In this document: one piece after another, positions 5,866 to 39,451 of the stretch
How positions within the stretch are numbered: position 1 is the first letter of the stretch
Layout of the letters: the number at the start of each line of letters is the position of its first letter
From: Acidobacteriota bacterium
Lineage (GTDB): Bacteria > Acidobacteriota > Terriglobia > Acidiferrales > UBA7541
Reading direction: 5' to 3'
DNA length: 43,197 bases
Assembly (NCBI GenBank): GCA_003131985.1
Contig: PKWH01000231.1
Span: 1 to 43,197, forward strand
Position numbers and translations under genes: made by a program
Notes under the pieces: generated by a model
What the model saw: only the letters and a program-made list of their open reading frames with translations
Told to the model about the DNA's origin: nothing
Database searches by the model: none

Positions 5866-7314
5866 ATGCGCAAAACGCTTCACATATTCGGAGCTGCAAT
5901 TTGTGTTGTGGCGCTAGGTGCGTCATCGGCCCGGGCTCAGCAGCAGACCCAGGATCAGCCGATCCCCGCCTATCATTCACCGCTTGCTTCGCAGGCCGAC
6001 AACGGTGATCCAAATGCTCCTCCGCCTCAGCTTTTGCCCGACAACCACGCCTTAACCGGGCCCCAGGACCCATCTCTGGGAGTGCCCTCGAGCAACCACA
6101 GCTATTGGACTCCGCACGTTGACCTGTCGGTCACACTTGATTCGGAGCCTCCCGTTACGGGCGGCGATGGAGGATGGACCACTTGGACTAGCCTCACAGG
6201 AGGCGTTGACCTGCGCTGGATGTCGGGACGGTCTGACATGACGTTGAATTATGTAGGCGGTGGTGTTTTTTCGAACGACGGAAGTGCCAGCAATGGAGTT
6301 GTGCAGGACTTAAATTTCGTGGACAGATTCACCTTTCGGCGTTGGGCGCTCACTGTTATTGAACAAGCGTCTTACACGCCTGAAACTGCTTTCGGGTCCG
6401 GTGGATTCCCGGGGATTTCCGTGCCCGGTGGAGCGCCGGGGCTGGGAGGACTTATTCCCGGCCAGACCATTATCACCAACGAAGGACAGCGCTTCTTTAA
6501 TACTTCTCTCGGTGAGGTTGACGTATTTCTTACACCGCGCTCGTCTCTGACGTTTTCGGGAGGTTATTCTCTCTTGCATACTTTCGACGAGAATCTCCTG
6601 GATTACGGAGATGAAATCGCTGAGGCGGGATACAACTACCAGGTCACTCGGAAAGACTCCGTCGGGGTTTCCTATGTGTTTAGCGGATTCCGTTATAACA
6701 ACTTCGACGAGTCAATCAATACGAACACCTTACTGCTATCTTACGGTCGAAGTATTACGGGCCGCTTGGCATTCCGTATTGGAGCCGGGCCGGAATTTGC
6801 CTCGATCAATACCCCCATCATTCCAGGAACTGGCGTCGGCACCATCGGGCCGCCTTCGGGGGGCTCCGTAAACAACCTATATTGGTTCCTCTCGACGTCG
6901 GTGCAATATCAAATGGAACGGACTGCATTATCGGCAGCTTATAGCCATGGCGTCGCCGGCGGATCTGGTGTGCTGGGCGGCTCACTGGCTGACACGGTGA
7001 CGGGTTCCGCGTCGCGGCAATTATCGCGAGTTTCTAGCGGCAACTGGAACGTCGGATACTCCAGAAACTCAGGATTGACTGCTACCGGGTTGCCGCAGAT
7101 CCCGAATTCAAATCAAACCTACGACTATTGGTTTACCGGCGTGAATTATACGCGTTCGTGGGGACGATCCTTAAACATGAACGTGGGATACCAATTGCAG
7201 TACCAAAATTCGAATTCTTCTTTCTGTACCGGAGCCGGATGTGGAGGAAGCTTTACTCGTAATCTGATTACATTTGGTGTGGGTTGGCGTAAACAGCCAA
7301 TCCCGATTGAATAA
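5866..7314 (+). CDS. Putative outer-membrane beta-barrel protein of the EPS export module (EpsL-like by position)
   Basis: Signal peptide (ICVVALGASSARAQQ). The sequence is Gly/Ser/Tyr/Asn-rich with alternating amphipathic strands, for example VGVSYVFSGFRYNN and NVGYQLQYQNSN. It sits between the Wza-like and Wzz-like genes. No specific family motif was recognised. Confidence 0.5.
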   Translation: MRKTLHIFGAAICVVALGASSARAQQQTQDQPIPAYHSPLASQADNGDPNAPPPQLLPDNHALTGPQDPSLGVPSSNHSYWTPHVDLSVTLDSEPPVTGGDGGWTTWTSLTGGVDLRWMSGRSDMTLNYVGGGVFSNDGSASNGVVQDLNFVDRFTFRRWALTVIEQASYTPETAFGSGGFPGISVPGGAPGLGGLIPGQTIITNEGQRFFNTSLGEVDVFLTPRSSLTFSGGYSLLHTFDENLLDYGDEIAEAGYNYQVTRKDSVGVSYVFSGFRYNNFDESINTNTLLLSYGRSITGRLAFRIGAGPEFASINTPIIPGTGVGTIGPPSGGSVNNLYWFLSTSVQYQMERTALSAAYSHGVAGGSGVLGGSLADTVTGSASRQLSRVSSGNWNVGYSRNSGLTATGLPQIPNSNQTYDYWFTGVNYTRSWGRSLNMNVGYQLQYQNSNSSFCTGAGCGGSFTRNLITFGVGWRKQPIPIE

Positions 7315-15662: not shown

Positions 15663-17102
15663 GTGGTACCCAACAAGCATTTCCAATTTGGCGGCGGTCT
15701 TCAGGAGACACTGCTGCACCCCATTGTGCTGGTCGCAATGGTTGTGTCAGTTATCCTGATACTATTTCTGCCCCGAAAATATGTGATCGTGCCGGTGCTC
15801 GTTACCTCGTTACTTGTACCCCTAGGGCAGCAAGTGGTGGTGGGCGGATTACATCTTTTTGTGATGCGGATCATCATTCTGTTCGGCTGCATCCGCATGC
15901 TGATTTCAAAGATGTCATCACAAGACGAGCTTCTTGCCGGTGGATTCAACTCCGTGGACAAGTGGTTCACGCTGTGGGCCGTTTTCCGGACCTTAACAGC
16001 CCTCGTTTTGTACGCATCGGTAGCGGCTGTGATTGGCGAATCCGGTTTCCTCTGGGACGTGTTTGGAGGATATTTTCTTTTGAGGTTTCTAATTCGCGAC
16101 TACGAGGACATTACTCGGGCCGCCAAGGTTCTTGCGCTAATCGCGGTTGTTGCTGCTGCGGGTATGTTGAACGAGAGGCTGCACTTTCAGAATGTATTCG
16201 GGTTTCTGGGAGGCGTCCCCATCGTACCGACCATTCGCATGGGAACCATCCGGGCGCAAGGCCCATTTATGCACGCTATTTTGGCTGGCACATTCGGCGG
16301 TACTGTGGCGCCGTTGTTCTTCTGGCTATGGAAGATCGCGAAATCCAAATTCCTCGCCGTGATTGGCGTAATTTCATCGGCAGTCATCGTAGTGGCAGCG
16401 GCATCGAGTACGGCCTTGATGGCCTTTGGCGGAGGCATCTTCGCGATATGTTTGTGGCCGTTCCGGAAGAAGATGCGGCAGGTCCGCTGGGGAATCGTCA
16501 TTTTGCTTCTCGCGTTGAGTCTCGTTATGAAGGCGCCCGTTTGGTTCGTGATTTCTCACGTGGATATAGTAGGCGGGAACTCAAGCTACCAGCGCGCTTA
16601 CCTGATCGACCAGTTCATAAGGCATTTCGGCGATTGGTGGCTCCTAGGCACCTTTCAAAGCGATTCCTGGGGAGTTGACATGTGGGATCACACCAATCAA
16701 TTCGTCGCCGAGGGTGAATCCGGCGGTTTGATCACACTGTACTGTTTCATTGCCATGATCTCTGTCAGTTTTGGAATGATCGGGAAGGCGAGGAAAGCCA
16801 TAGAAGGGGATAAAGAAAAGGAGTGGATGCTCTGGATCCTCGGCGCCGGGCTTTTCGCCCACATCGTCGGGTATTTCGGAATCAGCTATTTCGACCAGAC
16901 TCGCGTGGCCTGGTTTGTATTGCTGGCTATGATCAGCGCAGCCAGCGCTCCCATGCTGGCGTCGCAGGCAGCAACGGAGACCGTACCCGATCGGGGATTG
17001 TTCGCCTCACGCCTTGCGAATCGGCCTGCCCTGGCACATACAGCGGCCGGAGGCGTCCCCAGCTTCAGATGGGACAGCAAACGTTCGGGACGCTTGAATT
17101 AG
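15663..17102 (+). CDS. Polytopic membrane protein, putative O-antigen/EPS polymerase or ligase-like (Wzy-like)
   Basis: 479 aa with about 10 or more hydrophobic segments and one larger loop, located among glycosyltransferase and flippase genes. The assignment rests on topology and context only. Confidence 0.5.
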   Translation: MVPNKHFQFGGGLQETLLHPIVLVAMVVSVILILFLPRKYVIVPVLVTSLLVPLGQQVVVGGLHLFVMRIIILFGCIRMLISKMSSQDELLAGGFNSVDKWFTLWAVFRTLTALVLYASVAAVIGESGFLWDVFGGYFLLRFLIRDYEDITRAAKVLALIAVVAAAGMLNERLHFQNVFGFLGGVPIVPTIRMGTIRAQGPFMHAILAGTFGGTVAPLFFWLWKIAKSKFLAVIGVISSAVIVVAAASSTALMAFGGGIFAICLWPFRKKMRQVRWGIVILLLALSLVMKAPVWFVISHVDIVGGNSSYQRAYLIDQFIRHFGDWWLLGTFQSDSWGVDMWDHTNQFVAEGESGGLITLYCFIAMISVSFGMIGKARKAIEGDKEKEWMLWILGAGLFAHIVGYFGISYFDQTRVAWFVLLAMISAASAPMLASQAATETVPDRGLFASRLANRPALAHTAAGGVPSFRWDSKRSGRLN

Positions 17103-17339
17103 AAGGGTTTAACCTTTGTTCGGACCTGTGAGGCGCGTGGAGGAGCCTCCGACCTGTCCTCAAACTGTCCCCGCGGGCAGTAGTCGCCCTAAGCGGTTGT
17201 GGATAACATCATCCCAGTTGCATTTCACAGAGCTGAAAGTGAAAGAACTTTTGGCATGGAATGTCTCGGCTGGATGATGAGGGAGACGATGCGTAAAACA
17301 GTTCTTTTTAGGGGAATTCAGGTCCTTCGTGGTGTCCGA

Positions 17340-19139
17340 ATGAAAAAAACATATCTTTTTATGCTGGTCCTGTTGTTCGCTCCGCTCGCGGCTCGCGCCG
17401 CTGGAGGTGGAGCATGCCCTTCCGACGCACAGTACGTTAATCCGACCAATCCGACTGGACCACTTGTAACGCTTTCCAGTATCGGCATCACGAGTTGCTT
17501 CTACTTTGCTGACAGTGGCCTCGACACCAATGCCGGCACCACGGAAGCTGCCCCATTTTTGCATGCTCCCTTCATGCCGAACTGCGCATCATCGTGCGCT
17601 GCAGCTCAGGCTGCTTTTGGCCCGGGAGAGGGAATCATTGCGCGTGGAGGTGATACCTGGCACTACTTTTCGGGCACTCCTCTAATCGGCTTGCCGAGCG
17701 GCTGGCCTACAGGCAAAAATGGCTACGCATGGCATATGACTGTGAGCGGGACAAGCGCGAATCCAGTCTACATCGGCGTGGACAAAAATTGGTTCTCGGG
17801 CAGCGCATGGACGCGCCCGGTAATCACTACGGACAACCCTATTTTCACGCCATCTGCTCCAGCGTTTTCAAACCCTGCCTCGACATCTGTTTCACGTTGC
17901 GCCTTTCCGCAAGGGAATTTAGATGACTTCGCGGTTACCGGCCCCACGTTCTGGATATTCGATAATTTCGAATTCACGGGCATGTGCTGGAACGATAGAA
18001 CCGATGGCGGCACCGGCTCGAACGAGCACAATATGATTAAGCAGTTTCAGGGCGGCGGCACGGGAAGTTCTCCCCGCTATATTTTCAATACCTACACACA
18101 CGGCTGGAGCCACACGAGTTTCGCAGATTGCGCCAGCTCGGGAGCCTGCAACGGTCCATCCGCATTTCTGGGGAGCACTCAGGCGATCGACTCTGGACTT
18201 GTACTCGCATTCAACGTAGTGGATGGCTCGGATTCCGACGATTTCTCATTCAGCTTCGGATTCGGTGATGGTTACGACGTGGAAGAAAACGTCTTTAGGC
18301 ACTTAGGTGGGACGCAGATATTTGATAATTGCCATTCGGTCCATGACAACCTGTTCGAGTACATCAATAATGGGAACGATAATATGACTCACGGGGATAT
18401 GTTTTTCTGCGAGAGCGATGTCCAGCCGACGCAGAACAATTTCTTCTATAATAATTTAGTTCGGTATATAGCTACGGAATACAATCAAGACGCGCTCTCG
18501 GCGGTTTGGTGGCTCACTCCGTCACCCGGAAAAGCCGACTATTTTTACAATAACGTGGGCCATGACGTGAACTGTGATGGCGACTGCAACAATATGGGGC
18601 AATCGGGGCAATCTAATAGCAGTTCGCAAATTCTGATCTACAATAACACCTGGCAGTCGGTGCCCGTCAATGGACAGAATTTTAAGATTTTCGGCAACAC
18701 TTCATTCCCGGGAGCCATCACCAGTCAAAACAATCACTGGATTACGAATGGAGGAACCGGCTGCGGAAATATATTCACCGGAACCGCAAACGTCAACGGC
18801 GGAAACACCGCGTGCTCGGGCGACGTATTCCAGACGATTGCAGCAGCGAATGCGCAGGGATACACGTCCGCCAACGACTATGCCCCGACGGCAGCATCTA
18901 CAGCCACGGCAGGGAAAGTGGAGAACGAAACCGGCATCGCCGGCACATTCGGTCTAGCGTTCCTACAGAGCACCTCGAATGGGTGTGCTTACAACCCCGC
19001 AGGCCATACGGTGACTTGCCCGGCGATAACCGTATCCAATCGGCCATCCATCGGAAACTGGGATGCCGGAGCATACGTATCCGGCAGCTCCGACCAGCCC
19101 CCAGCACCGGCGAATCTGGCAGCAACCGTCAACAACTAG
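17340..19139 (+). CDS. Secreted Cys-rich protein with parallel beta-helix-like repeats (possible polysaccharide lyase or hydrolase)
   Basis: The internal ATG at 17340 gives a clean signal peptide, MKKTYLFMLVLLFAPLAARAAGG. Recurrent N-N/aromatic rungs occur (NNFFYNNLVRY, DYFYNNVGHD, ILIYNNTWQS, SQNNHWITNG). The track ORF start at 17199 is probably an upstream extension. Confidence 0.45.
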   Translation: MKKTYLFMLVLLFAPLAARAAGGGACPSDAQYVNPTNPTGPLVTLSSIGITSCFYFADSGLDTNAGTTEAAPFLHAPFMPNCASSCAAAQAAFGPGEGIIARGGDTWHYFSGTPLIGLPSGWPTGKNGYAWHMTVSGTSANPVYIGVDKNWFSGSAWTRPVITTDNPIFTPSAPAFSNPASTSVSRCAFPQGNLDDFAVTGPTFWIFDNFEFTGMCWNDRTDGGTGSNEHNMIKQFQGGGTGSSPRYIFNTYTHGWSHTSFADCASSGACNGPSAFLGSTQAIDSGLVLAFNVVDGSDSDDFSFSFGFGDGYDVEENVFRHLGGTQIFDNCHSVHDNLFEYINNGNDNMTHGDMFFCESDVQPTQNNFFYNNLVRYIATEYNQDALSAVWWLTPSPGKADYFYNNVGHDVNCDGDCNNMGQSGQSNSSSQILIYNNTWQSVPVNGQNFKIFGNTSFPGAITSQNNHWITNGGTGCGNIFTGTANVNGGNTACSGDVFQTIAAANAQGYTSANDYAPTAASTATAGKVENETGIAGTFGLAFLQSTSNGCAYNPAGHTVTCPAITVSNRPSIGNWDAGAYVSGSSDQPPAPANLAATVNN

Positions 19140-29407: not shown

Positions 29408-32329
29408 ATGCCTTTTGACATGCAGACAAACCTAAAAAATGCGGGACGCCAGATCGAGGCCCAACATGGAGCTCCAGGGCTTGTCTTCTGGATTACCGGC
29501 TTATCCGGCGCGGGCAAGACAAGCGTGGGGCGTGAATTGTGGAACCGGCTGCGCGCCGCCGGGCGTCCGGTCACCTTCCTCGACGGCGACGCGCTCCGTG
29601 CTGTGATCGCCGAAGATCTTGGCCACAGCACGGCCGACCGGCGGCGATCGGCGATGCGCAACGCGCGGTTGTGTCGGTTGCTGGCGGCGCAAGGCGCCGA
29701 TGTCGTCTGCGCGACCATCTCACTGTTTCACGAGGTGCAGCGTTGGAACCGCGAGAACATTCCCGGATATCGCGAAATCTACCTACGGGTCCCGATAGAT
29801 GAGCTAAAGCGTCGGGATAGCAAGGGCATCTATGCCGGGGCTGAACGCGGCGACGCGCGCGACGTCGTTGGCCTTGACGTGCCGGCGGAGGCTCCCGAGG
29901 CGCCGGACCTGGTCCTGGACAATCATGGCGGGCTCGATGTTGCCACCGCGGTCGAGCGCATCTTGTCGGTTTGCGACAGGCGGGATGGCACGGCACGGAC
30001 GGCGCACCTCGTTACCTTCAAGACGAAGGCGGAATCTCTGGAAGCGCTGGCGCCGCTGCTGCGCAATGGGCGCGTCCTGCCGCAGGTCCGATTTTCAGTT
30101 GGCGATTGGCGCTCGGACGCCGCTGGCGTGCTCGCTGCCGTCGCCGCCGTGCCCTGGGGTTCAAAACGGGTCATCGTGCGTAGCAGTGCACGGAGCGAAG
30201 ACGGCGCAGAGAGCTCCCAGGCCGGGAGATACGATTCCGTACTCGGTGTCGTCGGCAGCGCAGCACTGGCACAGGCAATCGATCAGGTGATTGACTCCTT
30301 TGCCGATGAGAGTAGCGACGACCAGATCTTCGTGCAACCCATGCTTGACCGCGTATCGATGGCCGGCGTGGCTTTCTCGCGCAGTCCCGGCGGCGGCCCT
30401 TATTTTGTTATCAATTACGACGACCGTTCCGGCCTGACCGATCGCGTGACCGCCGGTGTCGGAGACAATCTCGAGACTTTTCTTTGCCTCAAATCGCGGC
30501 CTGAGGCTTGTCCCCCGTTGCTGGCGCCGGTTATCGCTCTCATGAGCGAGCTCGAAACTCTCTTGGGGTGTGATGCAATCGACGTGGAATTCGCCGTTGG
30601 TGACGACGAGCAGCTCTACCTTCTGCAAGTTCGCCCACTCGCCGTCGACCGGTGGGAGCGGGCAGCAGACGCAAAGGTCGACGCCGCGCTTGCTGATGTC
30701 GCGCGCAAGGTCGAGCTGCTCAGCCGCCCGCATCCATACTTGCACGGTAGCAAAGCAGTATTCGGAGTCATGCCGGACTGGAACCCGGCGGAAATCATCG
30801 GGGTGCGGCCCTGGCCACTCTCGTTGTCGCTCTACCGCGAACTTATCACCGACGCGATCTGGGCGTATCAGAGAGACAACTACGGATACAAGAATCTTCG
30901 CAGTTTTCCGCTGCTGGTCAGCTTTCACGGACTGCCCTACATCGACGTGCGTGTCAGCTTCAACTCCTTCATACCAAGCGACGTACCCGACGATCTAGCC
31001 GGGCGTCTCGTAAATTACTACATCGCTCGCCTCCTATCCGAACCGCATCTCCATGACAAAGTCGAATTCGAGATCATCTTCTCCTGCTACACGTTGGATT
31101 TGCCGAAACGAATGCGCAGGCTGGCCGAGCACGGATTTTCCGCAGAAGACCTTGCCGAAGTTTCGGGCGCCCTACGGCGCCTCACCAATCGCATCATCCA
31201 TGGCGACACCGCGCTGTGGCGGGGCGACCGCGCTAAGATTGACCTGCTGGCACGGCGGTTACCGACGATCTGCAACGCAAAAATCGACAAGATCAGCCGC
31301 ATTTACTGGCTGATCGAAGACTGCAAGCGATACGGCACGCTGCCGTTCGCCGGTCTGGCGCGAGCGGGCTTCATAGCGGTTCAGCTGCTCCAGTCTTTCG
31401 TTGAAGTGGGCGTTCTCACTGCCGAAGAGGCTGCGACATTCATGGCGAGTGTCGATACCGTCGGGTCTCGCATCGGCCAAGATTTCGCGCAACTTCCGAA
31501 GGCAGATTTCCTCGCACGCTACGGCCACCTCCGGCCGGGCACTTACGACATCCTTTCGCCGCGCTACGACGAGGCGCCCGATCTCTATTTCGACTGGTCG
31601 AGTGCCCGAACGACGGCGTCCGCGTCCCCGCGCTTTGCGCTGTCGATCGAGCAGTTGCGACGCATCGAACAGCTGCTCAAGGAACATGAGCTCGACATCG
31701 ACGTCTTGAGCTTGATCGAGTTCATCAGGGCTGGCATTGAAGGCCGCGAATACGCAAAGTTCGTGTTCACGCGAAGCTTGAGCGACGCTCTGTCGCTGAT
31801 CAGGGAGCTGGGCGAGGATCATGGTGTTTCGGCGGAGGATTGTGCGTTTCTAAATTACGACGCCATCCGCACGCTCTATAGCGAGAGCGCTCCGGTGCGC
31901 GAGGTGTTGCTGGAGAGCATCGCGCATGGTAGAGAGCGTCACGCGCTCACCCGCAACCTCGTTCTTCCACCGAACATCACATCGCCCGACGAAGTGTTCG
32001 CATTTTATCTCCCCCCAAGCCAGCCTAATTTCATCACGCGAAAAAGCGTCACCGCACCGGTCGCGTCCATCGGCGACCCACCGGAGAGCTTCGCTGGACG
32101 GATTCTTTTCGTGCCAAGCGCGGACCCCGGCTTCGATTGGATCTTCACTCGTGGTATCAGCGGATTCGTCACCCAGTTCGGCGGTGCCAATTCGCACATG
32201 GCGATCCGTGCCGGCGAGCTCGGCATACCCGCCGTAATCGGCGCCGGCGAAGCGCTGTTCCGGCGATGGCAGTCGGCGCGCAAGCTATGCCTCGATTGCA
32301 CGAACCAGAAGGTCTTGGTCATCGCATGA
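29408..32329 (+). CDS. Two-kinase fusion: N-terminal APS-kinase-fold domain (CysC/Cj1415-like) plus a PEP-utilising/PPDK-type phosphohistidine kinase (Cj1418 L-glutamine-kinase-like)
   Basis: Residues ~25-190 read VFWITGLSGAGKTSVG...FLDGDALR...ADRRRSAMRNARL...ISLFHEVQRWNR...EIYLRVPIDELKRRDSKGIY, an adenylylsulfate-kinase pattern. Residues ~200-973 contain a PPDK_N-like nucleotide-binding region (GVAFSRSPGGGPYFVINYDD). The C-terminal swivel domain reads ILFVPSADPGFDWIFTRGISGFVTQFGGANSHMAIRAGELGIPAVIG, with the candidate phospho-His at codon 930 (nt 32195..32197). RBS aggga. Confidence 0.75.
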   Translation: MPFDMQTNLKNAGRQIEAQHGAPGLVFWITGLSGAGKTSVGRELWNRLRAAGRPVTFLDGDALRAVIAEDLGHSTADRRRSAMRNARLCRLLAAQGADVVCATISLFHEVQRWNRENIPGYREIYLRVPIDELKRRDSKGIYAGAERGDARDVVGLDVPAEAPEAPDLVLDNHGGLDVATAVERILSVCDRRDGTARTAHLVTFKTKAESLEALAPLLRNGRVLPQVRFSVGDWRSDAAGVLAAVAAVPWGSKRVIVRSSARSEDGAESSQAGRYDSVLGVVGSAALAQAIDQVIDSFADESSDDQIFVQPMLDRVSMAGVAFSRSPGGGPYFVINYDDRSGLTDRVTAGVGDNLETFLCLKSRPEACPPLLAPVIALMSELETLLGCDAIDVEFAVGDDEQLYLLQVRPLAVDRWERAADAKVDAALADVARKVELLSRPHPYLHGSKAVFGVMPDWNPAEIIGVRPWPLSLSLYRELITDAIWAYQRDNYGYKNLRSFPLLVSFHGLPYIDVRVSFNSFIPSDVPDDLAGRLVNYYIARLLSEPHLHDKVEFEIIFSCYTLDLPKRMRRLAEHGFSAEDLAEVSGALRRLTNRIIHGDTALWRGDRAKIDLLARRLPTICNAKIDKISRIYWLIEDCKRYGTLPFAGLARAGFIAVQLLQSFVEVGVLTAEEAATFMASVDTVGSRIGQDFAQLPKADFLARYGHLRPGTYDILSPRYDEAPDLYFDWSSARTTASASPRFALSIEQLRRIEQLLKEHELDIDVLSLIEFIRAGIEGREYAKFVFTRSLSDALSLIRELGEDHGVSAEDCAFLNYDAIRTLYSESAPVREVLLESIAHGRERHALTRNLVLPPNITSPDEVFAFYLPPSQPNFITRKSVTAPVASIGDPPESFAGRILFVPSADPGFDWIFTRGISGFVTQFGGANSHMAIRAGELGIPAVIGAGEALFRRWQSARKLCLDCTNQKVLVIA

Positions 32330-32351
32330 AAGCGGTCGCCATCACTCACAG
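32286..32351 (+). repeat. Gene-junction repeat, copy 1 (functional 3' end of the kinase gene plus a truncated 5' stub of the amidohydrolase gene)
   Basis: It aligns with 33207..33272 at about 47/66 nt by hand. It encodes ..CLDCTNQKVLVIA* and then ATGA-overlapped MKAVAITHS.., which runs into a stop after 26 codons. Confidence 0.6.
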
Positions 32352-32395: not shown

Positions 32396-33169
32396 ATGGT
32401 CAATAGCACATCCCAGCCCAAAGTAACTTGGGATTACACCGAGCACGCTTCTCATTACGATAAGAGAGCAGACTACTCCCACGATGCGATCAATAATTTG
32501 CTGAAGGCAATTGGCTGCACCCCTTCCAAGCCCGTAGCCGAGATTGGCGCAGGCACGGGTAAGCTCACGAAGGAGCTGCTCAGTCATGGATTAACGGTCA
32601 GCTCCGTCGAGCCGAACGACGCGATGCGGACAATCGGAATTCAAAATACCAAGGGCAAATCAGCTACCTGGTCTGTTGGCACAGGTGAGGCGACAGGATT
32701 GCCCACAAGCGGTGCTTACGCCGTTTTTTTCGGCAGCTCATTTAATGTAGTTGATCAGAGCCTCACTCTATCAGAGGTTTCCAGAGTGCTTGTACCCAAG
32801 GGCTGGTTTGCATGTATGTGGAATCATCGGGATTTAGATGATCCGATTCAACAGCGGATAGAGTCCATCATCAAATCCTCGATTCCAGCTTACTCGTATG
32901 GATCTAGAAGGGAAGATCCGACAAGCGTTATCAATGCAAGTGGGCACTTCTCTGCCACGAAATCGATAGATGGAAGTTTTGTATGGAAAATGTCAAAGTC
33001 AGACATTATTGTTGCTTGGAAATCACACGCGACTCTCAAACGCCAGGCAGGCAGTGACTCGGTTTTCAATCACATCATCGAGGAAATCGCGAGCTATTTG
33101 GACAAACTGCCTGAAATAATCGATGTGCCCTACACAACTCGGATATATTTTGCGCAAAAGATCAAGTAG
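32396..33169 (+). CDS. Class I SAM-dependent methyltransferase (candidate O-methyltransferase of the phosphoramidate block)
   Basis: Motif I VAEIGAGTGKLTKELL, with LTVSSVEPNDAMR and AVFFGSSFN. Strong RBS ggagg. By spot counts its GC is clearly lower than that of the genes on either side. Confidence 0.8.
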   Translation: MVNSTSQPKVTWDYTEHASHYDKRADYSHDAINNLLKAIGCTPSKPVAEIGAGTGKLTKELLSHGLTVSSVEPNDAMRTIGIQNTKGKSATWSVGTGEATGLPTSGAYAVFFGSSFNVVDQSLTLSEVSRVLVPKGWFACMWNHRDLDDPIQQRIESIIKSSIPAYSYGSRREDPTSVINASGHFSATKSIDGSFVWKMSKSDIIVAWKSHATLKRQAGSDSVFNHIIEEIASYLDKLPEIIDVPYTTRIYFAQKIK

Positions 33170-33206
33170 GGAGGGGTTTTACCGCTTGGCGGACTGCGAA
33201 TACAGT

Positions 33207-33272
33207 TGTGCCTGGACTGTACAAGCCGGAAGGTTCTAGACATCGCATGAAGAAAGTCGCAATTACCCAGAG
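33207..33272 (+). repeat. Gene-junction repeat, copy 2 (orphan 3' end of a kinase gene plus the functional 5' end of the amidohydrolase gene)
   Basis: The frame opened after the methyltransferase TAG reads ..LCLDCTSRKVLDIA*, against ..LCLDCTNQKVLVIA* at the real kinase C-terminus. It is followed by ATGA-overlapped MKKVAITQR.., the real start of the next gene. Confidence 0.6.
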
Positions 33273-33849
33273 GGTATCAGTCGTCCCGGGATATGGTGAG
33301 CGTCGTGATTGTCTCGATCAGGCGTGGCCACGGTTCCTGGCAGCGTGCGGACTGATGCCGGTGGCGCTTCCCAACGTGATTGAGGTAGCCGTGGCGCTTT
33401 GCTCAGGCGCGGACGTTACCGGATTGGTGTTGACCGGCGGCAACGACCTCGCTGCTCTCGGTGGCGATGCCCCAGAACGGGATGCCACCGAGAATGCGGT
33501 TCTTGACGTCGCAGAATCGCGCGGGCTGCCTGTGCTCGGCGTCTGTCGCGGGATGCAGGTGGTGCAGCAGCGTTGCGCAATCCCGCTGTGTCGCGTCGAA
33601 GGCCACGTGACACCACACCAGGTAATTCGGATCGACGGCGAGCCCACAGAGGTCAACAGCTATCATCGTTTCGCCGCCTTAGAATCACGACCACCCCTTG
33701 ACGTTTGGGCGGTCGCTGACGACGGCGTCGTCAAGGCTATCCGGCATGCGGCCCACTCGACCACCGGTATCATGTGGCATCCAGAGAGAATGGATCCTTT
33801 CACGTCTGCCGACGTCGCTCTGTTCCGCCGCGTCTTCAAGGTGGCGTGA
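33247..33849 (+). CDS. Class I glutamine-amidotransferase-fold / peptidase C26 hydrolase (Cj1417-like gamma-glutamyl hydrolase candidate)
   Basis: GLVLTGGNDL, nucleophile elbow LPVLGVCRGMQVV, and the His-Glu pair in GIMWHPE. I prefer ATG 33247 (MKKVAITQ) to the track GTG 33208, which lies in the orphan kinase remnant. Confidence 0.8.
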   Translation: MKKVAITQRVSVVPGYGERRDCLDQAWPRFLAACGLMPVALPNVIEVAVALCSGADVTGLVLTGGNDLAALGGDAPERDATENAVLDVAESRGLPVLGVCRGMQVVQQRCAIPLCRVEGHVTPHQVIRIDGEPTEVNSYHRFAALESRPPLDVWAVADDGVVKAIRHAAHSTTGIMWHPERMDPFTSADVALFRRVFKVA

Positions 33850-34628
33850 TGCGCGCCTTGATCCTTGCCGCTGGTCGCGGTAGTCGCATGGGGCAGCTGG
33901 GCGATGGCCGCCCGAAATGCTTGGTGGACCTGAATGGCCATCCGCTGATTGAGCGCCAGATCGCGGCACTCCGGCGCGGTGGGATGGACGAGATTGGAGT
34001 GGTCCGCGGCTATCGCGCCGACATGATCGATTTCCCCGGCATCACCTATTTCGCCAACGAACGATGGGCTGAAACCAACATGGTGATGTCGCTCGTCGCG
34101 GCCGCTTCTTGGCTACGCTCGGGGCCAGTCATCGTCAGCTATGCCGACATCTTCTACCTCAGCGAATTGGTGCGCGGTCTGTCCGGCGCCCCAGGCCAAC
34201 TGGTCATCAGTTACGACCGGGCCTGGCGCCGCTTGTGGACCCGGCGTTTCACTGATCCTTTGGCCGACGCCGAAACGTTCCAGATTGATGCCGCGGGGCA
34301 ATTGCTGGAGATCGGCGGCAAGACGGCGCGGATCGAAGATATCGAGGGGCAATATATGGGTCTCTTGAAATTCACGCCAGCTGCTTGGGGTGCCGTGGAG
34401 ACGCTACTCAGTACACTCGAGCCACCGGTCCGCGATCGCCTCGACGCGACCGGATTGCTGCGCCGACTGCTAGCGGGTAAGAAGCTCCCTATTGCCACTT
34501 TTGGCACCGATGGCCAATGGGGCGAAATCGACAATCCGGAGGATGTGACGCTGTACCAAAACATGGTAAGGGAAGGGGAACTCCGGCTCGAAGATGTGAT
34601 ACCCAGCGGAGAGCGGAGGGTGGGATGA
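33849..34628 (+). CDS. Nucleotidyltransferase (NTP_transferase fold, Cj1416-like cytidylyltransferase candidate)
   Basis: MRALILAAGRGSRMGQLGDGRPKCLVDLNGHPLIERQI is the signature N-terminal G-rich loop. The ATG overlaps the upstream TGA by 1 nt. The track ORF start (33774) lies inside the previous gene. Confidence 0.8.
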   Translation: MRALILAAGRGSRMGQLGDGRPKCLVDLNGHPLIERQIAALRRGGMDEIGVVRGYRADMIDFPGITYFANERWAETNMVMSLVAAASWLRSGPVIVSYADIFYLSELVRGLSGAPGQLVISYDRAWRRLWTRRFTDPLADAETFQIDAAGQLLEIGGKTARIEDIEGQYMGLLKFTPAAWGAVETLLSTLEPPVRDRLDATGLLRRLLAGKKLPIATFGTDGQWGEIDNPEDVTLYQNMVREGELRLEDVIPSGERRVG

Positions 34629-34661: not shown

Positions 34662-35522
34662 CTACAAACTGTAGCCCATTTGCTCGATCCGTCTTTTTGT
34701 CTCCGCATCCAACTCATTGATAAAGTTTCTGAATCGAGGAACTCTTTCTTTAACAGCTAAATAGCCATAAGGCTTGGTTCTCGGAGGGACCACCCGTAAA
34801 CGGCTCAAATCAAGATTAACCGACATGACTTCAGCGATCTTGGAAAACTCCTTTAATGGATTGATCGTGAAGTCCTCAAACCGCAACGTGAGCGTGGCGG
34901 TTTGGAGATAAATCTCAGTTTCCTCGACAAATTCCGGGAAAGACAAAAATCGTAAGCCCGGCGACGCCTTCCAAAAAGCATGGTCGCCATCGGCAAAGGC
35001 CTTGAATTCTGAGAAATTCTGCTCCAAACCGGCGCACAACTCGTCTGCGTTCTTGTAAACCTGGGAGATACTAAAAATTTTGCTTCCGTCGCGCCAGTTT
35101 TCTGCGGCTGATATAGTAATCCAATTTGTTAGCAATGAATCGAGAGGATGCCGATAGAGAAAAATCAAATCGGCAAATCCCGATTTGACCGCTTCCAATA
35201 TACGGCTGGTTACCGCCGGCAATGCTTGACCGCCGGAAACATACTTGATCGTGGCATGGCCGCTGTAGATCATGGATGTCGGACGTGCATGGAAGCGGAT
35301 CGTCTGTCTCAAATATCGTGTTCTTTCTCCAATATTCTGCAGCATCAGTTCGGTGACATATTGACGTCCGCTGCCGAAGAGGCCAATAACATAAGCTGTC
35401 CTGTCTTTCCCTGGATGGATTTTCCAATACCATTCCGTTTCCACCCATTTGTCGCGGAGGAACTGCAATTGTTCCCGAGGGGATTTTCGCGCGAATCTGA
35501 TGAGCTTAGGGAGTACCTGCAT
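34662..35522 (-). CDS. Sulfotransferase-fold protein (PAPS-type donor-binding motifs)
   Basis: A 5'-phosphosulfate-binding-loop-like YVIGLFGSGRQYVTELM and a 3'-phosphate-binding-like FLYRHPLDSLLTNW (compare R-D-P-x-D-x-x-x-S). Strong RBS aagaggag. Convergent with the nucleotidyltransferase gene. Confidence 0.65.
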   Translation of the reverse strand: MQVLPKLIRFARKSPREQLQFLRDKWVETEWYWKIHPGKDRTAYVIGLFGSGRQYVTELMLQNIGERTRYLRQTIRFHARPTSMIYSGHATIKYVSGGQALPAVTSRILEAVKSGFADLIFLYRHPLDSLLTNWITISAAENWRDGSKIFSISQVYKNADELCAGLEQNFSEFKAFADGDHAFWKASPGLRFLSFPEFVEETEIYLQTATLTLRFEDFTINPLKEFSKIAEVMSVNLDLSRLRVVPPRTKPYGYLAVKERVPRFRNFINELDAETKRRIEQMGYSL

Positions 35523-35578: not shown

Positions 35579-36463
35579 ATGGTACTTGTTTGGAAAGAAA
35601 TGAATAAAACAAAAAATAAAAGGATTCAAAAAGATCTGGACCGAATTGTAGCAGCGCTAGATGCAGGCGGCAAAATCTATCGGTCGAGATCGATGGGAAA
35701 TGTGCGTGTGCACAAGAAGGGAAGCGGTGACGCTGTCACGGACGTAGAGCTTCAAGTGAATCAACTGTTGTTTGAAATGCTGGTAGAAGCCGGAGATGGC
35801 TGGCTTTCCGAAGAAGACGTCGATAACGAGGATCGATTGCGATGTTCGCGGGTTTGGCTCGTCGATCCACTCGATGGAACAATAGAATATGTCGAGGGAA
35901 TACCAGAATGGTGCATTTCGATCGCCTTAATGGAAGGTGGCGAACTTATTGCCGGGGGAATATTGAATCCCCAGACCGATGAACTCATATACGGATCGCG
36001 CGAAATCGGGGTCGTCTGCCGTAATGGGCAGGCTCATAGTGCTGAAATGAAAATTCCGCCGCGCGAAGCGCTCGTGCTTGCGAGCCGCAGTGAAGTAAAG
36101 CGCGGAGAATGGAAGCGATTCAGCCAAGGTCCGTTTCAGACCCTAGCCGTGGGATCGGTAGCTTACAAACTAGCCTTGGTTGCGGCTGGCAAAGCCGATG
36201 CCACTTGGACGCTGGTGCCAAAGAGCGAGTGGGATGTTGCAGCCGGAGTCGCACTCTTGCAGTTCGCGCAAGGACATTTGCTAACGACGGAAGGCTTCCC
36301 ACCTACTTTTAATCGAAGAAACACTCGTTTCCCAGGTTTAGTTGGATTTTCTGCGGCGGGACTCGATCGACTGCGCCCTTTCCTCAAGTCCGTATTGGAA
36401 GCCGATGAGTTTCGTGATTGCCTTGCGTGGGCCCGCCCGTTGGCAGCCCTGGACCAGAAATAA
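35579..36463 (+). CDS. Inositol-monophosphatase/CysQ-superfamily phosphatase (candidate 3'(2'),5'-bisphosphate nucleotidase)
   Basis: Metal and substrate motifs LSEED, WLVDPLDGTIEYVEG.PEWCISIAL and WDVAAG. The CysQ-versus-SuhB subfamily cannot be decided by eye. An alternative start is at ATG 35600. Confidence 0.75.
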   Translation: MVLVWKEMNKTKNKRIQKDLDRIVAALDAGGKIYRSRSMGNVRVHKKGSGDAVTDVELQVNQLLFEMLVEAGDGWLSEEDVDNEDRLRCSRVWLVDPLDGTIEYVEGIPEWCISIALMEGGELIAGGILNPQTDELIYGSREIGVVCRNGQAHSAEMKIPPREALVLASRSEVKRGEWKRFSQGPFQTLAVGSVAYKLALVAAGKADATWTLVPKSEWDVAAGVALLQFAQGHLLTTEGFPPTFNRRNTRFPGLVGFSAAGLDRLRPFLKSVLEADEFRDCLAWARPLAALDQK

Positions 36464-38260: not shown

Positions 38261-39451
38261 ATGGCTAGACCCCTTTTCGCATTATCGGTGGAAGCCGATA
38301 CCCTGACGCAGATTGCTTCTCTGAACCAATCTGTTGTGGCGGGGCTCGTTTCCATGTTCGATCCCGAGCGAAAACTCTTCTGCCACCGGCTGCGGCTGGG
38401 CGAAAGTGGATTAGTTCGAGAGGGAATTTCTCATCGCTACACCATGATCGCGCTGTTGGGTCTCCAACGATTGCGATCCACCGGAGTCTCGATTCCGCTG
38501 GATCTTCCATCGATTTTGCAGGTTCTGATTCAGGACACCCGCTGGCTTGAAAATGTCGGCGACCTCGGTTTGCTTGTGTGGCTTTGTGCCTTGGTGTCTC
38601 CCGAGCGCCTAGCCGAAATTGATTCCCAATTCGATTTGAAACATGCTCTGGCTCACTTCCACGAGACTCGCCGGGGAAGAACGATGGAGCTGTCCTGGTT
38701 TCTCTCGGGCCTCGCCCACCAGAAGCTAGCGTGCCCGGACCTGCTTCCGCACCTGCGCGATACCGCCATGGAGACGTATCAGCTTCTGAGGAAGAATCAG
38801 GGCGAGCACGGAGTGTTCAGCCACCTCGCGGAAAACGGAGGCTTGACCGGGCTGATGCGCGGACGCATGGGAAGTTTTGCGGATCAAGTTTATCCCATCT
38901 ATGCGTTGGCCAAATTTTCTAGAGCGTATCAAGTGCCGAAGGCTGCCGAGCGTGCGCTGGACGCCGCGTTGACGCTGTGCGAATTGCAGGGTCCTCATGG
39001 TCAGTGGTGGTGGCACTACGACGCGGCCACTGGGAAGGTATTGGGTCAGTATCCTGTTTACTCTGTGCACCAATATGGCATTGCGCCCATGGCCCTTCTA
39101 GCGTTGGGAGAAGAGACTCAATCAGATTTTACTCCCTGGATTTATAAGGGACTACGATGGATTCACGGGGACAACGAGCTTGAACAGGATATGCGAGATA
39201 GTTCGGCAAACGTAATTTGGAGATATATTTATCGCAACGATTACAAAAAACATTGGGATGTCGCTCTCGCGGTGCTAATGGCGCGCGGAGATGCCCAACC
39301 TCACAAGGAACTTGCGGTCCTGCACGAGTGCCGTCCATACGAACTCGGCTGGCTGCTCTATGCTTTCGCCGGGCACCGAATGGGACAGCAAGGTCTGCCC
39401 GGCACGGCTCCTATAATAGCGACGCGATTGACCGAACGCATTCAACAATGA
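38261..39451 (+). CDS. Conserved hypothetical protein (helix-rich, possibly alpha/alpha-toroid-like)
   Basis: 396-aa ORF in an operon-like position between the DegT and deacetylase genes. It has periodic aromatic/Leu-rich helical segments (ELSWFLSGLAH, VYPIYALAKFSRAY, GQWWWHYD..YPVYSVHQYGIAPMALLALGE). No catalytic motif was recognised. Confidence 0.4.
   Translation: MARPLFALSVEADTLTQIASLNQSVVAGLVSMFDPERKLFCHRLRLGESGLVREGISHRYTMIALLGLQRLRSTGVSIPLDLPSILQVLIQDTRWLENVGDLGLLVWLCALVSPERLAEIDSQFDLKHALAHFHETRRGRTMELSWFLSGLAHQKLACPDLLPHLRDTAMETYQLLRKNQGEHGVFSHLAENGGLTGLMRGRMGSFADQVYPIYALAKFSRAYQVPKAAERALDAALTLCELQGPHGQWWWHYDAATGKVLGQYPVYSVHQYGIAPMALLALGEETQSDFTPWIYKGLRWIHGDNELEQDMRDSSANVIWRYIYRNDYKKHWDVALAVLMARGDAQPHKELAVLHECRPYELGWLLYAFAGHRMGQQGLPGTAPIIATRLTERIQQ

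Follow-up and report, generated by a model that had tools for sequence, protein, structure and literature searches.

The stretch of DNA analysed here, which we call the window, is a contig of 43,197 nucleotides from an Acidobacteriota bacterium (PKWH01000231.1). At 29408..32329 (+) it carries a gene of 973 codons whose product joins a domain resembling adenosine 5'-phosphosulfate (APS) kinase to a glutamine-kinase-type module. We consider it likely that this gene encodes a genuine bifunctional enzyme with both ATP-dependent kinases of a nucleotide-phosphoramidate donor pathway. The phosphoramidate pathway of Campylobacter jejuni makes a methyl-phosphoramidate sugar decoration, and work from the Raushel laboratory is said to have placed its steps in the order kinase, cytidylyltransferase, hydrolase and 3'-kinase. 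Cj1415–Cj1418 jointly make cytidine diphosphate (CDP)-phosphoramidate 3'-phosphate out of glutamine, ATP and CTP (PMC11800397), and a 2019 review knew methyl-phosphoramidate-type modification only from Campylobacter (PMC6429109). PDB searches gave no entries for Cj1415–Cj1418, and no paper describing an APS-kinase-like/glutamine-kinase fusion was found in the open-access literature searched. The fusion represents a known pathway in a new architecture; it is abundant in databases, where it is already partly labelled 'glutamine kinase'.

Two kinase families in one open reading frame

The gene is a single open reading frame (ORF) with an ATG start, and the only stop in the ORF listing is the terminal one. 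An earlier note, made from the sequence of the window, had described an uninterrupted ORF, the P-loop GLSGAGKT at 29498..29521 and a swivel-domain histidine at codon 930, and we find all three as described; the histidine is residue 930 within the motif GGANSHMAIRAGELGIP, which begins at residue 925 of the fusion protein. Pfam matches are APS_kinase (PF01583) at residues 24–171 (E 4.5e-33), PPDK_N (PF01326) with its best stretch at 252–328 (E 1.5e-14) and the swivel domain of the PEP-utilizers (PF00391) at 897–966 (E 3.3e-14). NCBIfam places NF004041 at residues 24–189 and NF004508 at residues 202–972. The first span agrees with the placing of the APS-kinase part within the first ~190 amino acids, and the matches from both databases bear out the view that the halves come from the APS-kinase-fold and phosphohistidine glutamine-kinase families. 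The AlphaFold2 (AF2) model of the protein, built on a 104-sequence alignment, has a mean predicted local distance difference test score (pLDDT) of 92 and a predicted template-modelling score (pTM) of 0.80, with residues 192–199 as the sole internal stretch below a pLDDT of 50.

The fusion is widespread. A search over 5.8 billion proteins returned 4201 relatives at E <= 1e-10, and the best 120 of these 4201 are all ~933–1018 amino acids long, show 85–97% identity and contain all three Pfam domains. The Joint Genome Institute (JGI) names relatives 'adenylylsulfate kinase-like enzyme/phosphohistidine swiveling domain-containing protein' or 'glutamine kinase'. A genome scan with one genome per bacterial species gave 595 relatives, whose best 80 loci (L001–L080) were analysed by ORFs and phmmer. 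Both domains lie in one intact ORF at 45 of these 80 loci, while 4 further loci have the fusion in truncated or split form. Several intact fusions sit on contigs of 1–4 Mb, including long-read contigs. The nearest of the 80 loci, L036 on the chromosome OY969113.1 of an Acidobacteriota metagenome-assembled genome (MAG), encodes a protein of 96% identity in DNA that is collinear with the window across 20 kb at 91% identity. This collinearity marks the window as acidobacterial. Distant lineages keep the fusion at identities down to 42–49%, as in P0242, P0246 and P0270 and at the Chlamydiales locus L049. Campylobacter is absent from the best 80 loci of the 595 relatives.

The earlier note had flagged the linker region (nt ~29950..30050, residues ~181–214) for a missed stop or frameshift and had suggested a database search for the same architecture. 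The region is open in every close relative, and the search found the single-ORF fusion in >120 protein clusters. As the fusion is intact in 45 species genomes and the linker is open in relatives, an artificial fusion by a missed stop or frameshift is excluded. The broader idea that assembly or sequencing produced the fusion, or that it is an inactive read-through of pseudogene type, could draw on the few related loci that are split or frameshifted (L031, L043, L044 and L070). We give it almost no credence, given intact single ORFs from several sources in 45 independent species genomes and >120 protein clusters, catalytic motifs that are kept in both halves and an AF2 model with high confidence for both modules. 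Assembly artefact was accordingly dismissed, being refuted by the distribution of intact fusions. In L031, L043, L044 and L070 frameshifts or stops divide the fusion gene into two or three ORFs, perhaps through errors of long-read sequencing or through pseudogenisation.

The C-terminal module matches NF004508 (PRK05849) at 936.4 bits against a cut-off of 501, with residues 202–972 aligned to profile positions 9–788 of 789; the model's own name is merely 'hypothetical protein'. The top matches of residues ~204–973 in a Foldseek search of the PDB are two entries for Listeria rifampin phosphotransferase, 5hv1 and 5fbs (E about 1e-19). His930 is invariant in family alignments of 29 and 104 sequences, the latter set including members at 37–97% identity, and about 40 further residues are invariant across the family alignment. 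Stand-alone glutamine kinases start just ahead of the position of K207 of the fusion protein. Moreover, the module is encoded together with a cytidylyltransferase and a hydrolase in the window, at about 45 fusion loci and at most unfused loci, a grouping that we refer to as the cassette. Membership of the phosphohistidine glutamine-kinase family, as predicted from sequence and model, is well supported by family model, fold, motifs and context.

Residues 24–189 pass a single APS-kinase model, that of the PRK05541 subfamily (NF004041; 173 bits against a cut-off of 127), of which Cj1415 is presumably also a member. All CysC models stay under their cut-offs (TIGR00455, 117.5 vs 138.7; NF002059, 118.8 vs 244; NF003013, 103.6 vs 163). 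The domain superposes in Foldseek on solved APS kinases with target-normalised template-modelling (TM) scores of 0.85–0.89 and a root-mean-square deviation of about 2 Å, and GLSGAGKT and LDGD of the fusion protein align with their counterparts in these structures. An alignment of fused proteins, stand-alone cassette proteins and true APS kinases revealed a signature common to the first two groups and not found in the third. After the DGD motif, where human PAPSS1 has the canonical DGDN, the residue varies in the cassette proteins and gives DGDA in the window protein. Canonical LGFS is LG(H/Y)S in the cassette subfamily, FISP is TIS(L/M), FTG(I/L)D is VVG(L/I)D, and an extra motif, WNR, is present that canonical enzymes do not have. 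About 22 unfused loci have signature-bearing stand-alone APS-kinase-like genes in their cassettes. With family model, fold, motifs and context in agreement, the predicted function of the N-terminal half is well supported too.

Two of these changes may bear on the substrate. In the window protein the Phe of LGFS is replaced by His and the Phe of FTGID by Val. We take these positions to be Phe75 and Phe165 of the Penicillium chrysogenum enzyme, which we assume to sandwich the adenine of APS; loss of both adenine-stacking residues would then fit a non-adenine substrate. The window ORFs that were scanned with Pfam include no ATP sulfurylase or other gene of sulfate activation or reduction (cysD/cysN, sat, cysH). 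The earlier note had thought an assimilatory CysC role less likely, and with the CysC models under cut-off, a distinct signature and no sulfate-activation gene in the window that judgement stands. We dismissed an assimilatory role on the failed CysC model cut-offs and the gene context.

The cassette in its exopolysaccharide locus

The window is an exopolysaccharide locus. Its upstream genes encode a tetratricopeptide-repeat protein, a sigma-54 activator, a Wza-like exporter, a Wzz/GNVR protein, ATPases and a NusG-like protein, together with a priming sugar transferase, a Wzy-like membrane protein, a flippase, several glycosyltransferases and rmlABCD. From the end of rmlD to the start of the fusion gene there are 125 nt. 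Downstream genes encode a DegT aminotransferase, a polysaccharide deacetylase and an AsnB-type asparagine synthase. The features of the fusion gene and its neighbours are collected in Table 1.

Table 1. Coordinates of the fusion gene, its domains and motifs, and neighbouring features of the window.
Feature	Position	Strand	Remarks
Fusion gene	29408..32329	+	973 aa; APS-kinase-like domain, short linker, glutamine-kinase-type module
N-terminal APS-kinase-fold domain	29477..29980	+	Residues ~24–191; predicted cytidine diphosphoramidate 3'-kinase, Cj1415-like
Walker-A P-loop GLSGAGKT	29498..29521	+	Residues 31–38; aligns with P-loop of solved APS kinases
Inter-domain linker	29981..30016	+	Residues ~192–203; low AF2 pLDDT
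Glutamine-kinase-type module	30017..32326	+	Residues ~204–973; ATP-grasp, central helical domain, swivel phosphohistidine domain
His930 codon, GGANSH motif	32195..32197	+	Predicted phospho-carrier histidine
Duplicated junction, first copy	32283..32351	+	69 nt; fusion 3' end, ATGA stop/start overlap, vestigial hydrolase start
S-adenosylmethionine-dependent methyltransferase	32396..33169	+	PF08241, PF13649; between fusion and hydrolase genes
Duplicated junction, second copy	33204..33272	+	71% identical; relic of fusion 3' end and likely true hydrolase ATG at 33247
Cj1417-like class-I amidotransferase-fold hydrolase	33247..33849	+	PF07722 (Peptidase_C26/GATase), E 3.9e-21; predicted gamma-glutamyl-CDP-amidate hydrolase
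Cj1416-like MobA-like nucleotidyltransferase	33849..34628	+	PF12804, E 5.3e-19; predicted CTP:phosphoglutamine cytidylyltransferase
286-aa protein, predicted sulfotransferase fold	34662..35522	-	AF2 and Foldseek; candidate transferase for 3'-phosphorylated donor
CysQ-like 3'(2'),5'-bisphosphate nucleotidase family protein	35579..36463	+	PF00459, E 1.2e-37; candidate phosphatase

The cassette is conserved in about 45 species genomes, with genes for the fusion, a C26 hydrolase, an NTP transferase and a methyltransferase. The usual order in related cassettes is fusion, hydrolase, cytidylyltransferase, methyltransferase. The nucleotidyltransferase, whose closest solved relative is CTP:phosphocholine cytidylyltransferase (1jyk), is encoded in nearly all cassettes, and a methyltransferase homologue in most, typically 3' of the cytidylyltransferase gene. 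Five families of the window presumably match the cj1415–cj1420 block of C. jejuni. The cited papers name Cj1415–Cj1418, with Cj1419 and Cj1420 left without assignment there. When the window's other exopolysaccharide genes were compared by phmmer with the flanks of related loci there were few matches, so the cassette is not bound to the particular locus type of the window.

The 286-residue protein encoded 3' of the cytidylyltransferase gene matched no family in Pfam and NCBIfam scans and has about 1000 homologues. Its AF2 model (pLDDT 84, pTM 0.81) has PAPS (3'-phosphoadenosine 5'-phosphosulfate) sulfotransferases as all of its top 46 PDB matches in Foldseek, with E values from 1e-5 to 2e-2 and modest TM scores of 0.33–0.45. 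Its invariant residues G49-x-G51-R52 and R123-H-P-x-D127-x3-T resemble the motifs with which sulfotransferases bind the 5'- and 3'-phosphates (PSB and PB). A homologue adjoins the cassette in about 35 fusion loci. Homologues often form the C-terminal domain of proteins of 680–1026 amino acids whose N-terminal part is conserved, unannotated and equipped with a Walker-A-like motif; these longer proteins matched no Pfam family, and a hidden Markov model of the domain did not detect it again in the N-terminal parts. Loci of the Bryobacterales type encode proteins of 930–1030 amino acids in which the sulfotransferase-like domain makes up the C-terminal ~250 residues (L008 14463-17270, L010 8835-11711, L013 15089-17923, L034 15087-18167 and L043 8116-11034, all on the minus strand). 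The N-terminal ~670 residues of these proteins are 50–66% identical and carry the Walker-A-like GPFGSGKSS, with no Pfam match. L026 is without a 286-residue homologue and has a Pfam Sulfotransfer_3 protein of 465 amino acids at 16524-17921 (+), just 3' of the cassette; this gene is a second, independent link of the cassette to sulfotransferase-fold proteins.

The CysQ-like protein has TIGR01331 (CysQ) as its best NCBIfam match, at 99 bits and under the cut-off. CysQ-like genes recur in or beside cassettes (L002, L005, L031, L036, L049, L059, L066, L067 and L080). Those of distant lineages lie at 6267-7010 in the Chlamydiales locus L049, 14227-15042 in Chitinibacter L059, 12875-13702 in Chitinilyticum L067 and 12903-13670 in L080. 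As the predicted pathway product is a structural analogue of PAPS, the sulfotransferase-fold protein and the CysQ-like phosphatase are attractive candidates for transfer and recycling. On its modelled fold, the 286-residue protein may be a phosphoramidate transferase that uses the PAPS-like donor. The CysQ-like protein may be the phosphatase for the by-product cytidine 3',5'-bisphosphate, by analogy with the removal of adenosine 3',5'-bisphosphate (PAP) by CysQ. No link between sulfotransferases and methyl-phosphoramidate (MeOPN) transferases was found in the open-access literature searched.

Several points weigh against a phosphoramidate pathway. Orthology of the two halves to Cj1415 and Cj1418 is read from family models, names in databases and gene context. 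The best NCBIfam match of the hydrolase, NF045546 'gamma-glutamyl-CDP-amidate hydrolase', reaches 112 bits and so lies under its equivalog cut-off of 250. Nor is the cassette always flanked by glycan genes: those of L007 are, whereas the flanks of L030 hold a beta-lactamase-family gene, a protein kinase and a fumarase. Finally, the sulfotransferase-fold protein and the CysQ-like phosphatase encoded next to the cassette would also fit a module of APS kinase and PAPS-dependent sulfation.

In such a module the N-terminal domain would be a true APS kinase that supplies PAPS to the sulfotransferase-fold neighbour, the CysQ-like enzyme would clear PAP, and the glutamine-kinase pathway would be an independent part of the locus. 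The intact P-loop and DGD motif within an APS-kinase fold, the sulfotransferase fold of the 286-residue neighbour, the adjacent CysQ-family gene and the Sulfotransfer_3 protein 3' of the cassette in L026 can all be read in this way. Yet the domain fails every CysC equivalog model while passing that of the PRK05541 subfamily, and both presumed adenine-stacking Phe positions have changed, to His/Tyr and to Val. The same replacements occur in the stand-alone homologues of cassettes that are without the 286-residue protein (L048–L080). Moreover, in every lineage examined the domain is tied covalently or by position to the genes for glutamine kinase, hydrolase, cytidylyltransferase and methyltransferase, the window ORFs scanned include no ATP sulfurylase, and the cassette keeps a methyltransferase for which sulfation has no need. 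We therefore regard a sulfation module as improbable and rate it below a phosphoramidate pathway.

Some features of the window stand apart from the cassette. It has no tRNA genes, and promoter and terminator scans gave fewer sites than shuffled controls. A conserved ORF of 646 codons at 17199-19139 (+) matches no Pfam or NCBIfam family; its product has an N-terminal signal-like hydrophobic segment and is rich in Asn, Gly, Ser and Thr. Another conserved gene without a Pfam or NCBIfam family, at 38261-39451 (+), encodes a cytoplasmic protein of 396 amino acids and is also present in L036.

Origin and spread of the fusion

In distant unfused relatives the APS-kinase-like gene is nearly always found within the same cassette. 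In L048, L050, L054, L055 and L062 it is the immediate 5' neighbour of the glutamine-kinase gene, both being on one strand and separated by -3 to 54 nt, and in other unfused relatives, including Azospirillum sp. TSO22-1 and Chitinibacter tainanensis, a methyltransferase gene stands between the two. With the parent genes adjacent and in the order of the fusion, loss of one stop codon suffices to explain why non-consecutive steps have been joined. The gene arrangements thus suggest that the fusion most likely arose by read-through between adjacent, co-transcribed APS-kinase-like and glutamine-kinase genes.

Fusion partners of the glutamine kinase were counted in the best 150 family representatives at 50% identity. 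Stand-alone proteins account for 106 of them, 32 carry a Cj1416-like cytidylyltransferase, 7 have an unassigned N-terminal extension and 5 an APS-kinase-like domain. The commoner fusion type (P0323–P0390, ~1000–1050 amino acids) consists of an N-terminal Cj1416-like NTP_transf_3 domain followed by the glutamine kinase. The seven extensions, of 170–230 residues, match neither the APS-kinase-like domain of the window nor the Cj1416-like domain, and the two that were scanned with Pfam gave no family.

The fusion is a valid Rosetta-stone link between the APS-kinase-like enzyme and the glutamine kinase. This part of the earlier note holds, and the subfamily signature and the scores under the CysC cut-offs strengthen it. 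The note had further taken the joining of steps 1 and 4 to argue for a complex or for channelling. That argument falls away with parent genes that are adjacent, a linker that is short and of low confidence, and step-2 fusions that are commoner (32 vs 5), and channelling between steps 1 and 4 has no positive support. One could still propose that the fusion channels intermediates, or nucleates a metabolon with the cytidylyltransferase and the hydrolase, and so shields labile P–N intermediates. The fusion is strongly conserved (85–97% identity in >120 clusters) and is retained to 42–49% identity in distant lineages; the glutamine kinase is often fused to the step-2 enzyme too, which makes physical association within the pathway a recurrent event; and the overall pTM of 0.80 is compatible with a fixed domain arrangement. 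On the other hand, the fused steps are non-consecutive, with two freely diffusing enzymes acting in between, and the linker at residues 192–199 is short and of low confidence. The same cassette exists in many lineages with separate genes in varied orders, and adjacency of the parent genes offers a simpler origin. On balance we think channelling unlikely, and read-through between neighbouring genes is the origin that we prefer.

The composition of the cassette differs from that of its surroundings. GC content is 0.61 in the fusion, hydrolase and cytidylyltransferase genes (0.65–0.72 at third codon positions), 0.48 in the methyltransferase gene and the gene for the 286-residue protein, and 0.53 in the rest of the window. 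When the window was compared with other loci by blastn, the cassette genes alone aligned, at 74–89% nucleotide identity, and the flanks did not. The aligned loci (L003, L007, L014, L015, L022, L023, L025, L026, L030, L044 and L061) belong by label to at least 7 other phyla or classes, the MAG labels being Gemmatimonadales, Binataceae, Solirubrobacteraceae, Eremiobacterota families, Alpha- and Gammaproteobacteria, Isosphaeraceae and Actinomycetota. The Isosphaeraceae-labelled MAG shows 89.3% nucleotide identity over the fusion gene. Gene content of the flanks varies from locus to locus. If the MAG labels are correct, these alignments suggest that a self-contained cassette has spread horizontally across phyla.

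Within the window the cassette has also been rearranged. A direct repeat of 69 nt brackets the low-GC methyltransferase gene (32396-33169). As the repeated junction flanks this gene, the methyltransferase was inserted at an ancestral, translationally coupled junction of the fusion and hydrolase genes. Judging from the repeat, the hydrolase start is most likely the ATG at 33247, not the GTG at 33208.

Proposed pathway and comparison with known systems

The analysis itself establishes an intact ORF, the families and folds of the domains, catalytic motifs that are kept, a conserved gene neighbourhood and the distribution of the fusion. The route that we infer, with its substrates, products and acceptor, would run as follows. 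The ATP-grasp domain of the C-terminal Cj1418-like module would load phosphoryl groups on His930 of the swivelling domain, the cytidylyltransferase would form CDP-glutamine, and the amidotransferase-fold hydrolase would free cytidine diphosphoramidate. The N-terminal Cj1415-like domain would then add a 3'-phosphate, yielding 3'-phospho-cytidine 5'-diphosphoramidate, a PAPS-like donor. The fusion would secure co-expression of both kinases at 1:1 stoichiometry, and channelling would be unnecessary. From its place in an exopolysaccharide locus, the cassette probably puts (methyl) phosphoramidate on that polymer.

A bolder proposal, which we put forward only tentatively, is that a self-contained, horizontally mobile cassette rebuilds the whole PAPS logic around phosphoramidate. 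Its parts would be the two-kinase fusion, the cytidylyltransferase and the hydrolase for making 3'-phospho-CDP-amidate, a hitherto unrecognised sulfotransferase-fold enzyme for transfer of the phosphoramidate, a methyltransferase for the cap and a CysQ-like enzyme for recycling cytidine 3',5'-bisphosphate. If this were true, soil bacteria of many phyla would commonly carry methyl-phosphoramidate-type decorations on their surface polymers.

The fusion provides Campylobacter-independent support, at the level of sequence, for placing both kinases in one pathway. It is also a simple genomic marker for the phosphoramidate pathway, and as such it points to a pathway that is common in uncultured soil bacteria (45 intact fusions in the best 80 species genomes). 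The conserved neighbours are concrete candidates for the still-uncharacterised steps of transfer and recycling. The fusion itself would be an ordinary one between operon neighbours and does not speak for channelling. The more interesting leads are that the cassette looks complete in a PAPS-like way and that it is widely, and apparently horizontally, distributed among soil bacteria.

The C-terminal module resembles Cj1418, the L-glutamine kinase of C. jejuni (EC 2.7.3.13), in matching the PRK05849/NF004508 family model end to end, in its domain set of ATP-grasp, central domain and swivel His domain, in having a C26 hydrolase and a cytidylyltransferase as gene neighbours, and in the name 'glutamine kinase' given by JGI to its relatives. 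Unlike Cj1418 it bears an N-terminal APS-kinase-like domain, which is a separate protein in C. jejuni (PMC11800397), and its host is an acidobacterium with an exopolysaccharide locus, not a capsule locus linked to 3-deoxy-D-manno-octulosonic acid (Kdo). The rifampin phosphotransferase (RPH-Lm)/PEP (phosphoenolpyruvate) synthase family, which gives the best structural match over residues ~204–973, shares the three domains and the swivelling phosphohistidine, and it was matched at the sequence level as well. Identity between rifampin phosphotransferase and the window module is about 15%, however, and the central substrate-binding domains are different; the predicted acceptor of the window module is the amide nitrogen of glutamine, and rifampin phosphotransferase has no APS-kinase domain.

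The N-terminal domain has the APS-kinase fold, P-loop and DGD motif in common with Cj1415, the cytidine diphosphoramidate kinase of C. jejuni. It falls in the PRK05541 subfamily and not among the CysC equivalogs, and is likewise encoded with other phosphoramidate-pathway genes. Whereas Cj1415 is free-standing, the window domain shares one polypeptide with the pathway's first enzyme.

Other fusions offer further parallels. In PAPS synthase and enzymes of the CysN/CysC type an APS-kinase-fold domain is also fused to a pathway partner (PDB 1x6v, 3cr8 and 4rfv), and the end product is again a 3'-phosphorylated nucleotide donor. There, ATP sulfurylase and APS kinase catalyse consecutive steps, whereas the window fusion would join the first and the last of four, and its partner is a phosphohistidine ATP-grasp enzyme in place of a sulfurylase. 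The cytidylyltransferase–glutamine kinase fusions likewise combine the glutamine-kinase module with a pathway partner at its N-terminus. Their partner is the step-2 enzyme, so that consecutive steps are joined, whereas the partner in the window is the predicted step-4 kinase.

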